Source: Escherichia coli (GTDB taxonomy: Bacteria > Pseudomonadota > Gammaproteobacteria > Enterobacterales > Enterobacteriaceae). From it: 64,000 bases of DNA. Shown in pieces: positions 31,127 to 33,363 of the stretch. The stretch lies in assembly GCF_041248615.1 (NCBI RefSeq), contig NZ_CP158426.1, one strand, 5' to 3'. The notes below the pieces were generated by a model. That model searched no databases. It worked only from the letters and a program-made list of their open reading frames with translations, and was not told where the DNA came from. The translations under genes and the position numbers were made by a program. The first letter of the stretch is position 1, and each line of letters starts with the position of its first letter.

Positions 31127-31925
31127 GTCTTGCATGAGAATCATGTAGTTACATTTTGGTAAAATTAGCAAGCTATTAAATAGTGTGTTTATTTTGAAAA
31201 AATAATTTTTTGTTGCATTAAAGGAAACTTGTTCAATAAATGATAGAACGTTTATTGAGCAACAATTTTGCAGTGATGCGCTATATGCCGCATTACATAA
31301 GGCTTTGCTGATGATAATGTAAAAGTGAAGAAAGCTAACATTGCTCTTTTAAGCTACTTTTCATTGAATTTTTAGTATGGAATTACATAGGGATAAACTA
31401 TGAATATTCTATGATTTACACGAGATATTCTTGCTGTTTAATTCCGGCTTTGGAGATCAGGCATTCGCAAGAATACGCTAACGCGTTGCCTGAAAAGCCA
31501 TTGCACATAATAGAGGTGAGCGTATAGCGAACTATCAATGTGATCATTGCACGAATGATAATGAGTGGATATAGATTCTATATATCGTTAGATTGTAGTT
31601 TGATAGTTAATGTGTAATGTAGATTGTATGAGCGTATAGCGAATGTTAGTTAGATCAACAACAAACTAACCTTTAAATCTCTTTTATCTTCTCATAGATA
31701 TGGCTATGCGTAGCAACCGAAGGTTAGCCAATCATCTCTATGCAGCCGTAAGGCTGTTTTGCATGTAATAGTTGTTTGTTGTTGTTAGACAGTTACCAAT
31801 TTATAGATCAGAGATAGATGTGAGCGTTGAGCGATACACTAATCATAACAACATCTTCTTACTTTTTAGTTAGTTGTTAGTAGGTTATTGTTATGCGCGC
31901 TATTAGCGCATGTATAAAGGTATCA

Positions 31926-32026
31926 TTTTTATCTAAAGGGCTTTAGACATTTTTGATACCTTTTTCATCTCTAAAAAAGTGTAATTTTTATCTAAAGGGG
32001 CTTTAGACATTTTTTACACCTTTTTC
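31926..32026. repeat. Two copies of a roughly 40-bp direct repeat, period about 60 bp
   Basis: TTTTTATCTAAAGGGCTTTAGACATTTTTGATACCTTTTTC and TTTTTATCTAAAGGGGCTTTAGACATTTTTTACACCTTTTTC. Confidence 0.7.
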
Positions 32027-32170
32027 TGTGCAAGACACTTACCAGTGTGCACAATACTTATGCTTTTCTAAAGCCGGGAATTTTTAAGTTTGATTGATCA
32101 ATTGTTAACTTTAAAAGTTACTTTTAACAATCACTTAGACGATCTAAAGCCGCAATTAACATAATATAAG

Positions 32171-32200
32171 TTGACATGCAAGCACTTTTTACCGTATAGT
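32171..32200 (+). promoter_or_regulatory. Strong sigma70-like promoter with no downstream ORF
   Basis: Consensus -35 TTGACA (32171-32176), 18-bp spacer, -10 TATAGT (32195-32200). Confidence 0.45.
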
Positions 32201-32206
32201 GCGGGT

Positions 32207-32260
32207 TTCCTACCTACCCAGGAAATGAGTTCCTACCTACCCAGGAAATGAGTTCCTACA
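32207..32260. repeat. Perfect tandem repeat, 23-bp unit TTCCTACCTACCCAGGAAATGAG, 2.3 copies
   Basis: Identical units at 32207-32229 and 32230-32252 plus partial TTCCTACA; begins about 7 bp after the promoter -10. Confidence 0.8.
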
Positions 32261-33218
32261 ATACTATAATTAAACTACAATTAAACTATCTTTTATAAAT
32301 TCTTTTATCTTTTAAAGAATAATTATAGGGATACCCGTTAGGGAGTCTTCGACTATCCCTTAATCTATTGGCATTCGCCAGAACCTTGCACAAGTTAGAC
32401 TGATGCTTGTCATAACAGATAGTTTTTGTTTTTTGTTTTTTGTTAGTAGTTAGCTGATCTATGTTCGCTTTCCGCTCACAACGAATATGTAATCTACTAT
32501 GTGCAAATAGCCTACGGCTTGCGTATGGCTAATAGTCTTGCGCTGTGCGCAGAACGATAATTAACTAACTACCATCTAACGATTGAAATTTACTTGTGCA
32601 ATAACCTGAGCGTAAGCGAATGGTTGTTAGTGTCTATGCGCTGTGCGCTTCAATAGTTCCATTGATGAGGCTTACGCCAATCTAACGATCATCAATCTAT
32701 TTAAGAGAAAATCTATTGTGCAATACTCTGACGAGTGCAATAACCTTGTGTGCTACGCGTTAGCGATGTTAGCACATAGACACAGACAACAACCAACAAC
32801 AAACAAAAAAGAAAGAATGGTTTTAGTAGTTGAAGGTTAAATAAGTTTCTACCGCTTAAATCAAGCCGTAGGCGAGCTAAACGTATATAAGGTAGGGAAA
32901 CACTTAGCGGTAATAGATTAGCTCGTTATAGAGCTTCTGAGGAGCTTTACAGGTATTTTATAAGATGTCTGAAATCAGAGTTTATCTATCCACCATCTTT
33001 CCATCATCTGATAAATCAAAAATAAGCCCCTTAAATAAGCCTCTGACGAGATAAACAACCTCTACATAAGGGAATGTATTGTTTTTATCAAAACCCCCGT
33101 CAGAGTGCGATTGAGAGCGTTTTAGACAACAGGGAAGAATTGTACCAGAGTAGGCAGCACAAAAAGCTAAGAAAAATTATAAGAAATTGAAAATGATCAA
33201 GTTTTTTATAAAAGAGGG

Positions 33219-33247
33219 TTGACAAAGCCGCCGTTATGTAGTATTGT
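33219..33247 (+). promoter_or_regulatory. Sigma70-like promoter upstream of the small ORF
   Basis: TTGACA (33219-33224), 17-bp spacer, TATTGT. Confidence 0.4.
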
Positions 33248-33363
33248 AAGTAGGGAGGGGAGAAACATCTCTCTCCATCTAAATAATCAAATCACAGAAC
33301 ACTGCACTTTGAGCCGTCAGGCTGCAAGGTGTGTTTTTCTTTTATCTAAATAAGGAGTTTTTT

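Follow-up and report, generated by a model that had tools for sequence, protein, structure and literature searches.

What is encoded by the roughly 2.3-kb gap, with a GC content near 0.35, that separates a minus-strand recombinase gene (30443-30994) from a short open reading frame (ORF; 33331-33510) in a 64,000-nucleotide stretch of an Escherichia coli genome (contig NZ_CP158426.1; hereafter, the window)? We consider it probable, at about 0.65, that this DNA is non-coding and forms the replication-origin and control region of a phage-satellite-like element of ~12.4 kb that integrates at tRNA genes—here at glyU—and that is truncated by the insertion sequence (IS) IS1 at 33506. Established are the anatomy of the region, its conservation across genera, the match between the type of a Rep-like protein and the type of iteron, and the conserved hairpins and terminator. 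In the following we set out this evidence, together with the other explanations that it bears on.

The original prediction had described 31130-33360 as AT-rich, free of ORFs of 60 amino acids (aa) or more and packed with repeated short motifs. Its AT fraction is indeed 0.648, compared with 0.505 for the whole window (65% versus 50%), and GC stays at 0.33-0.36 across 31001-33000, the window being at ~0.50. The statement on ORFs nearly holds: a single frame of at least 60 aa, a 65-aa one with a GTG start (32643-32840), lies in the gap, but since it is disrupted in variants L007, L011, L012 and L015, missing from clade II and without a protein-family match, it is, to judge from its sequence, no conserved gene. 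All of the motifs were found close to where they had been placed, and a shuffled control gave counts far below those observed, with none of 300 dinucleotide shuffles reaching the count of any listed motif. As these motifs were picked post hoc, the number of repeated 12-mers on either strand is the unbiased measure and carries more weight: 14 were observed against 1.3 ± 1.5 in shuffles (two tandem arrays masked).

Such a region might also be a decayed, frameshifted gene remnant or AT-rich filler, as its location in a horizontally acquired, IS-disrupted island could suggest, yet nearly everything we found speaks against this and we give it very little credence. Translated searches returned no degenerate gene: the ten longest frames were without a significant PHROG match (best E 0.007), and translated comparison across genera added nothing beyond the identity at the DNA level. 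On these two results the pseudogene idea was rejected. Moreover, an ORF-poor gap of 1-2.7 kb persists across genera, with conserved motifs and hairpins. The suggestion of a decayed replicon or phage control region is right at its core: a phage-like replicon, now truncated, would have its origin and control region here. The DNA itself, however, is not decayed, being 99.6-100% identical to that of intact copies.

These copies define the element. The window itself matches the chromosome of E. coli NRZ14408 at 100%. The stretch is present in 713 of 5,426 complete E. coli genomes, and a sub-piece (31245-31421) explains most of the 562 weaker genome matches. Where intact, the element measures ~12 kb and mostly adjoins a tRNA gene: glyU in O26, thrW in O104:H4 HUSEC2011 and others, with one copy at a non-tRNA site beside the thiM riboswitch. 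Logan contig L132 is bounded on both sides by a 30-nt repeat equal to a tRNA 3′ end, which sets the full att-to-att size at 12,390 bp. The gene order is invariant: the tRNA with small ORFs; the recombinase (−); 1.7-2.7 kb of unannotated DNA; a rightward operon encoding a protein of 60 aa and a helix-turn-helix (HTH) protein of ~220 aa; a second gap of ~1 kb; a capsid module comprising a capsid protein of the lambda-gpE type (PF03864), one protein of ~613 aa and another that resembles tail-fibre or baseplate proteins; and a tyrosine integrase (−). The layout of minus-strand recombinase, gap and plus-strand operon (Rep, capsid, integrase) is shared by the thrW, glyU and thiM-adjacent sites. Relatives of the capsid protein (29-48% identity) mark loci in Citrobacter, Kluyvera, Kosakonia, Enterobacter, Raoultella and Yersinia, and the element's architecture recurs in Citrobacter, Kluyvera, Enterobacter, Raoultella and Yersinia; each of the five other-genus loci with enough upstream sequence has an ORF-poor, AT-rich gap of 1-2.2 kb, and the order of recombinase, 2.2-kb gap and operon is likewise seen in Yersinia.

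The most informative repeat of the gap, an exact 23-bp tandem of TTCCTACCTACCCAGGAAATGAG at 32207-32252, had been overlooked by the original prediction; iterons, which it had proposed alongside other arrays of protein-binding sites, do exist (Table 1), yet none of its listed motifs is one. Between variants this repeat array is wholly different. We distinguished type A (TTCCTACCTACCCAGGAAATGAG, as in the window), B (CCCCCACAGAAnnCTGTTA), C (GGTAGGTCACTGTGAACTAGGGG) and D (GTAACGATnCGTTAC), in every one of which a short inverted repeat occurs together with a run rich in C or G; units of types A to C are spaced ~23 bp apart, and the other variants carry 2-5 repeats. The iteron type matched the N-terminal type of the Rep-like protein—the HTH protein of the rightward operon—in all 32 distinct loci (A 8/8, B 10/10, C 10/10 and D 4/4); among the C-type loci, five were scored by eye, the regular expression being too strict, and a sixth (L043) lies within a mosaic array. 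In every variant the iterons are followed by an AT-rich tract, and this holds also for Kluyvera and Citrobacter, whose repeats are of their own kind. From this arrangement we infer one step beyond cognate binding sites, namely that array and tract would constitute an iteron origin with its unwinding element. The protein itself matches Pfam HTH_36 and, weakly, PHROG replication-initiator families (E 1e-3 to 4e-6); a search for Rep homologues was uninformative, returning near-identical E. coli proteins only. Two IMG/VR loci, L043 and L053, carry mosaic arrays that string together D-like, C, B, a fifth type (CCCCTATCAAnnnnTGATAC) and A iterons; the joining of several types suggests recombination between origins of differing specificity.

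At their other end the Rep-like proteins are alike. All four E. coli types and the Citrobacter protein terminate in IYDSIPF, IYDSLPF, YEDFDIPF or FDPIPF, that is, in D/S-(I/L)-P-F, and no other ORF in these loci ends in (I/L)PF. The E. coli single-stranded DNA-binding protein (SSB) ends in DFDDDIPF, a tail to which PriA, primase, the chi subunit and further partner proteins bind, and we take the Rep tail to resemble it. By analogy, we hypothesize that an SSB-tail mimic on the initiator would explain how host machinery is recruited to an origin without DnaA boxes, and it is the absence of these boxes that led us to propose recruitment through the tail.

The tandem repeats could instead be operators of an HTH transcriptional regulator, as which databases indeed name the protein, and the region a genetic switch rather than an origin. 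A short inverted repeat inside each unit is operator-like, and a match of protein type with repeat type would suit any sequence-specific binder. However, the arrays stand 1 kb upstream of the conserved early promoter without overlapping it, are always followed by the AT-rich, origin-type tract and belong with a protein whose PHROG matches are replication initiators and whose SSB-like tail has no obvious role in a repressor. This makes the operator explanation improbable, though not negligible, and we continue with an iteron origin.

The boxes noted by the original prediction turned out to be of a different nature. Its TGAGCG..AGCGAA boxes resolve to a mini-hairpin, GAGC-[loop]-GCGA(A), of which ten instances were found: five in the window (+31518, +31630, +31822, −32477 and +32608), one, in variant form, in L004, two in Citrobacter and one each in Raoultella and Yersinia. 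In all ten the loop, 3-7 nt long, starts with G and ends with A, and the flanking arms are complementary, with sequences that differ (AACC/GGTT, ATAG/CTAT, GGGTC/GACCC, CTG/CAG). In the other genera, the strict motif is confined to the non-coding gap. The palindromes ATGCGC-N7-GCGCAT and TGCGC-TGT-GCGCA occupy an equivalent position in two paralogous modules. Given that the spacer varies while the loop-closing G..A and the stems stay, boxes and GCGC palindromes are best read as hairpins, a pattern that suits single strands in folded form more than it suits arrayed binding sites on duplex DNA.

Half of the mini-hairpins (5/10) contain an exact GCGNAGC or GCGNNAGC, namely GCGTAAGC, GCGTAGC, GCGAAGC, GCGATAGC and GCGTCAGC. 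DNA mini-hairpins of this class are exceptionally stable, and much less so as RNA (2026 review, PMC13037366); the same review locates them at the point where primase starts on the G4, St-1 and alpha3 origins, along with a related one (CCGAAGG) in RSF1010 ssiA and a GCGGAGC copy in the promoters of N4 (PMC13037366). By their sequence, those of the element appear to fall within, or close to, the GCGN(N)AGC class of primase-dependent origins.

Mini-hairpins of both orientations lie in a larger conserved hairpin block, which nhmmer detected after the AT tract in Kluyvera (E 4e-36) and Citrobacter NCU1 (E 7e-23). Kluyvera keeps the E. coli block with a different initiator family, so the block is independent of the Rep type. 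Folded with DNA parameters, it scores z = −3.65 and −4.91, and over both hairpin regions and both strands the values range from −3.7 to −7.2 relative to shuffles. Paired changes preserve its stems: TGTGCTA-CGC-gtta-GCG-atgt-TAGCACA at 32747-32777 reads GCGTTA-CCCC-ttt-GGGG-atgc-TAACGC in L007; CAGCC...GGCTG of E. coli clade II is TGACC...GGTCA in Kluyvera; and TTCGTG-[11 nt]-GGCG-GTAA-CGCC-CACGAA of E. coli has the Kluyvera counterpart TCGTGC-[11 nt]-CTGAC-GAGA-GTCAG-GCACGA. These were read by eye because MAFFT with RNAalifold misplaced Kluyvera against E. coli.

Alignment of 15 loci (L002-L016) to the window revealed the gap as a mosaic of conserved, lineage-specific and optional blocks (Table 1). 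Its 780-bp insert (31421-32200) is absent from L003-L016, which have 165-320 bp in its place, and was found in only 75 of the 5,426 genomes. The insert folds strongly as DNA (z −4.6 on the plus and −7.2 on the minus strand) and contains mini-hairpin modules (three), hairpins with GNRA caps and a strong promoter. It also has a tandem pair of terminator-like hairpins, between which the stem changes are paired (GGTATCA/TGATACC in one, AGTGTAA/TTACACC in the other). With the downstream block it shares merely motifs of 12-28 nt, in both orientations, and it looks like an additional set of the same modules.

Table 1 Features of the gap, its surroundings and related loci (window coordinates unless a locus is named)
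Feature	Position	Strand	Basis or remark
Type A iteron array, 2 1/3 copies of 23-bp unit TTCCTACCTACCCAGGAAATGAG	32207..32259		Repeat family D9
AT-rich tract, candidate DNA-unwinding element	32260..32330		84.5% AT; follows iterons
Rep-like genes	L002 10635-11300; L003 13998-14666; L005 11087-11740; L006 11278-11967; L020 12322-12987		Deleted from window
Conserved left block	30995-31420		Beside recombinase
Left sub-block, most widely shared piece	31226..31420		82-97% identity in all variants; no assigned role
Lineage-specific hairpin-rich insert, 780 bp	31421..32200		Alignment
Tandem-repeat array and AT tract	32207-32330		
Conserved hairpin-rich block	32330-32880		
Optional block	32882-33027		
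Conserved promoter block	33027-33364		
Conserved hairpin block	32327..32880		Alignments; paired changes versus L007, Kluyvera, Citrobacter
Three-way junction in block	32327-32361		
Hairpins in block	32509-32532; 32747-32777		
Mini-hairpins in block	32464-32477; 32608-32620	−; +	
TGCGC-TGT-GCGC hairpins in block	32540; 32638		
Mini-hairpin copy 1, GAGC-GTATA-GCGA(A)	31518..31531	+	
GAGCG..AGCGA(A) motif	31518-31531; 31630-31643; 31822-31835; 32608-32620	+	
Inverted GAGCG..AGCGA(A) copy	32464-32477	−	Absent from the original prediction's list
TTGTGCAATA	32594; 32716		
GTGCAATA	32735		
CTCTGACGAG	32726; 33041		Inverted partner CGTCAGAG at 33099
Palindrome ATGCGC-N7-GCGCAT	31893-31911		
Two tandem terminator-like long hairpins	31913-31966; 31972-32026	+	T run after each; repeat families D5, D7, I7; −15.3 and −11.9 kcal/mol
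Strong sigma-70-like promoter at insert end	32171..32200	+	TTGACA-18-TATAGT, 11/12; points into iterons; this lineage only
Long-range stem CTCTGACGAG...CGTCAGAG	33041..33107	+	Consensus fold −12.6 (+) versus −9.2 (−)
Early promoter of rightward operon	33219..33247	+	TTGACA-17-TATTGT
Leader RNA (predicted)	33254..33345	+	Hairpin 33254-33280, then intrinsic terminator just before ribosome-binding site
First early-operon gene, truncated	33331..33510	+	Stop codon supplied by IS1
IS1 (768 bp)	33506-34273	−	Inverted repeats; annotated IS1B transposase; comparison with intact elements
Small serine recombinase gene, 183 aa	30443..30994	−	PHROG 125 'DNA invertase', E 7e-62
Sigma-70-like promoter into recombinase gene	31031..31060	−	TTTACA-18-AATAAT, 10/12; same site in L003
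Two 34-bp dyads TCACTAC-N20-GTrGTkA, candidate recombinase/res-like sites	31070-31103; 31118-31151		Regular expression and alignment
tRNA-Gly (glyU), integration site and left boundary	28659..28729	+	Rfam tRNA match 71.6 bits; annotated tRNA-Gly; relatives at tRNA-Thr

The right end of the gap carries the signals of the early operon. The promoter TTGACA is invariant in all 11 aligned variants and in the other 18 E. coli-clade leaders, and the leaders of Raoultella, Citrobacter and Yersinia likewise lie behind a TTGACA promoter. Transcription is predicted to start near 33254, at a first hairpin whose stem varies, with an AACA loop common to the window, L003 and L014; the terminator that follows (13-pair stem, 33303-33333; T run, 33334-33345; −17.9 kcal/mol) keeps its stem in 11 variants, with variable loops, and is present in two other genera. 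Promoter, leader and terminator as a set are shared with Citrobacter and Raoultella, and Yersinia has an analogous one. The G.U pairs of the terminator stem would be C.A on the opposite strand, and the consensus fold energy is −17.4 for the plus strand versus −8.4 for the minus strand; similarly, variants hold the long-range stem 33041-33107 paired through A-U to G.U changes, on the plus strand only. Since promoter, leader and terminator are conserved with G.U pairs that suit the plus strand alone, the early operon would be gated by an RNA leader. An antiterminator search found no complement longer than 8 nt to the terminator arms.

Several observations weigh against a replication origin with hairpin priming signals. 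The window holds just 2.3 iterons compared with 4-5 in other variants, and no DnaA box (TTWTNCACA) occurs in 30995-33360. The 'transcriptional regulator' label of the Rep-like protein, combined with the weakness of its PHROG matches, leaves operators as an alternative role for the repeats. Only five of the ten mini-hairpins agree in length with the published GCGN(N)AGC, the others having 1-3 extra loop bases, and the covariation is based on 3-4 independent lineages. Promoter-like sites are no commoner than in shuffles, so that promoter and terminator counts alone carry no weight. Finally, the hairpin data fit single-stranded DNA and RNA alike, and near the promoter GNRA-type loops and plus-strand G.U pairs favour RNA.

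This last point leads to a different view of the hairpins, in which the blocks 31440-32030 and 32330-33130 would be one or more genes for a large structured non-coding RNA (ncRNA) regulating the early operon or a helper phage (cf. PLE and the P4 CI RNA). It is compatible with an iteron origin and competes only with the reading of the hairpins as priming signals. Loops of the GNRA class persist between genera, GTAA in E. coli corresponding to GAGA on a re-paired stem in Kluyvera, and both the stem 33041-33107 and the leader hold their pairing via G.U on the plus strand only. Insert and downstream block share short complementarities, the promoter at 32171 and the tandem terminator-like hairpins at 31913-32026 could delimit transcription units, and the non-coding region of PLE yields abundant ncRNAs (PMC7567579). 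Yet that promoter is lineage-specific and the search upstream of the block revealed no conserved one; both strands carry the mini-hairpin, a kind of structure reported to be far stabler as DNA than as RNA (PMC13037366). RNA-fold z-scores of −1.7 (+) and −4.4 (−) favour the minus strand in the centre, contrary to the plus-strand G.U evidence near the promoter. Rfam 15 E-value scans of four variants (window 28000-36000, L003, L005 and L024), a check that the original prediction had named, matched the tRNA and unrelated families outside the gap only. On balance we regard a large structured ncRNA as a serious but minority possibility.

The left end raises the question of what the recombinase does. 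Despite its PHROG label, the enzyme matches the Tn3 and gamma-delta resolvases (E 2e-27) at least as closely as Gin (1e-24). Two 34-bp dyads lie directly upstream of its gene, with one lone half-site besides, in a stretch that is 96-99% conserved among variants with differing centres; these sequences make recombinase binding at 31070-31151 plausible, and a resolvase or autoregulator seems likelier than an invertase.

Were the enzyme nevertheless to work an invertible or shuffling switch, flipping promoters between the flanking gene sets, one might point to the label 'DNA invertase' and to the many inverted repeats, including a pair (31019-31036 and 33282-33299) that brackets the region. However, all 15 loci (L002-L016) are collinear with the window, with reverse-strand pieces of just 12-31 nt, the bracketing repeat is not conserved in variants, and L132 has a small tyrosine recombinase in the same position. 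Such a switch is thus highly unlikely, and a Hin/Gin-type invertible segment was rejected, no inverted segment being found among the aligned loci. In L132, the tyrosine recombinase (186 aa; 1707-2267) lies upstream of the gap and is followed by a Dam methylase gene adjoining it (3002-3670); it looks as if an unrelated enzyme had replaced the serine recombinase at the same position.

Returning to the replication-origin and control region, the parts could work together as follows; origin firing, hairpin priming, recruitment through the tail and recombinase binding are the steps that we infer. The early promoter (33219-33247) would produce a short leader, and the terminator (33303-33345) would control entry into the early operon. 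This operon encodes the small Rep-like protein, whose variable winged-helix N terminus would bind the cognate 23-bp iterons, presumably followed by opening of the adjacent AT tract. The conserved, SSB-like C terminus could then recruit host proteins that are SSB partners. Once the DNA is unwound, the GAGC-[G..A]-GCGA mini-hairpins on both strands would most likely serve as single-strand initiation (priming) signals. The leftward serine recombinase may bind the 34-bp dyads, both to regulate itself and to resolve multimers of the element. Taken jointly, these features might amount to a new kind of satellite origin—a swappable iteron-reading head, an SSB-tail mimic that recruits host priming proteins without a DnaA box, and a mini-hairpin priming or recognition signal kept from E. 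coli to Yersinia—which we advance tentatively, with less confidence than the origin itself; alternatively, the hairpin modules may be part of a new large structured RNA.

Among described systems, the nearest arrangement is that of the Vibrio cholerae PLE satellites, which have a ~3-kb non-coding region with a minus-strand gene cluster beside it, an origin in its rightmost quarter and abundant ncRNAs (PMC7567579). Like PLE, the element is of satellite size and integrative, with an ORF-free region of 2-3 kb flanked on one side by a minus-strand gene or cluster and a (here predicted) Rep-bound repeat origin towards the rightward genes. It differs in host, in its tRNA integration site and in gene content, carrying a lambda-E-type capsid protein where PLE has no identifiable structural genes. 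The likeness is one of layout, and we claim no homology.

Other comparisons concern individual parts. The order of iterons, AT tract and hairpins on opposite strands (−32477 and +32608) is that of RSF1010 oriV, and the mini-hairpins appear to fall in or close to the GCGNAGC/GCGNNAGC class known from priming signals of G4, St-1 and alpha3; unlike these systems, the element encodes neither a primase nor a helicase and is devoid of DnaA boxes, and its conserved GAGC..GCGA flanks and longer loops lie outside the published motif. The 183-aa recombinase with dyads directly upstream, overlapping its promoter, recalls the res sites of Tn3 and gamma-delta (the activity being predicted), but there are two clear dyads rather than three subsites (28, 34 and 25 bp) and no transposase. 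As in the immunity regions of P4, phiR73, P1 and N15, a constitutive-looking promoter and a terminator precede the first early gene, with short complementary sequences upstream; in contrast to them, no CI- or c4-like RNA was identified and complementarity to the terminator arms is at most 8 nt.

The element also lacks the P4 marker genes. When the 16 L003 proteins were scanned against PHROG, Pfam and NCBIfam, we detected no portal, terminase or protease and none of the satellite markers sought (Psu, Sid, Delta, alpha primase; AlpA, Pri-Rep; portal, protease, TerS), and it is on these grounds that we call the element, with due caution, satellite-like. Searches for known relatives, also named by the original prediction, led to no known origin region: BLASTN of the region against phage records and tblastn of the capsid protein against them gave no match, and only two plasmid records matched by BLASTN, both carrying the same element. 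Literature searches found no description of the family; a brief remark in one paper concerns 'peculiar' tRNA-Phe satellites with a resolvase gene but no primase. We regard the finding as a probable iteron origin and control region in an apparently undescribed satellite-like family.

In the window, IS1 stands in place of Rep, capsid protein and integrase, that is, of everything past codon ~58 of the first operon gene, and identity to the intact O26 copy ends at 33505. With its Rep gene deleted, the origin is orphaned: a well-preserved relic unable to fire or replicate by itself. Past IS1 (33506-35800), the sequence enters remnants of the ETT2 region (a truncated winged-helix HTH pseudogene, then yqeH and yqeG). 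As IS1 runs straight into these, it appears that the remainder of the element and a portion of ETT2 were lost together in a single IS1-associated deletion.

Further observations were made in related loci and elsewhere in the window. The replication module of Citrobacter Awk4 (L017 6038-7522) and of Raoultella (L023 6422-7891) contains a ~490-aa protein, the latter with a GSGKS P-loop-like motif near its N terminus; L132 encodes a 265-aa DUF6945 protein (5170-5967), and Kluyvera a 277-aa protein with a similar N-terminal sequence (L021 5299-6132). Judged by such sequences, the replication module is exchangeable across genera. The second ORF-free gap (L003 15986-16977), which is ~1 kb long and precedes the capsid module, has similar GT-rich runs and hairpins and gave no match in phage records; with both gaps, about one quarter of the element is non-coding. 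Just outside the element in L003, next to a second integrase, lies an Rfam int-alpA RNA match (24503-24570; 44 bits, above the gathering threshold); another island is stacked at thrW in HUSEC2011. A further mini-hairpin-like copy lies near the left end of the element, ~400 bp from the tRNA (29134-29147, −); it reads GGGAGCGTAGCGACTTC in E. coli and Kluyvera and GGAGCGAAGCGACTCC in Raoultella (L021 ~199-212; L023 ~2094-2107) and is thus kept in three genera. At 53666-53920, four DnaA-box matches, two of them perfect (TTATCCACA), cluster in the mutH-ygdT intergenic region, the location of DARS2 (DnaA-reactivating sequence) in E. coli.

About 13% of complete E. coli genomes, including O26, O104:H4 and enterotoxigenic E. 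coli (ETEC) strains, carry the element or its remains, and their annotations show hypothetical proteins and a blank gap only. For the genome of the window itself, the practical import is modest, its copy being an IS1-truncated relic. As an origin and control region, the gap would account for a recurrent unannotated block beside tRNA genes, and the four pairs of Rep and iteron would form a natural orthogonal set. Two testable ideas follow: an initiator that borrows the tail of SSB, and a mini-hairpin near the unwinding site that is shared across genera. Whether the hairpins serve an origin or an RNA, a ~12.4-kb element of which about one quarter is non-coding would represent an undescribed satellite family common in E. 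coli.

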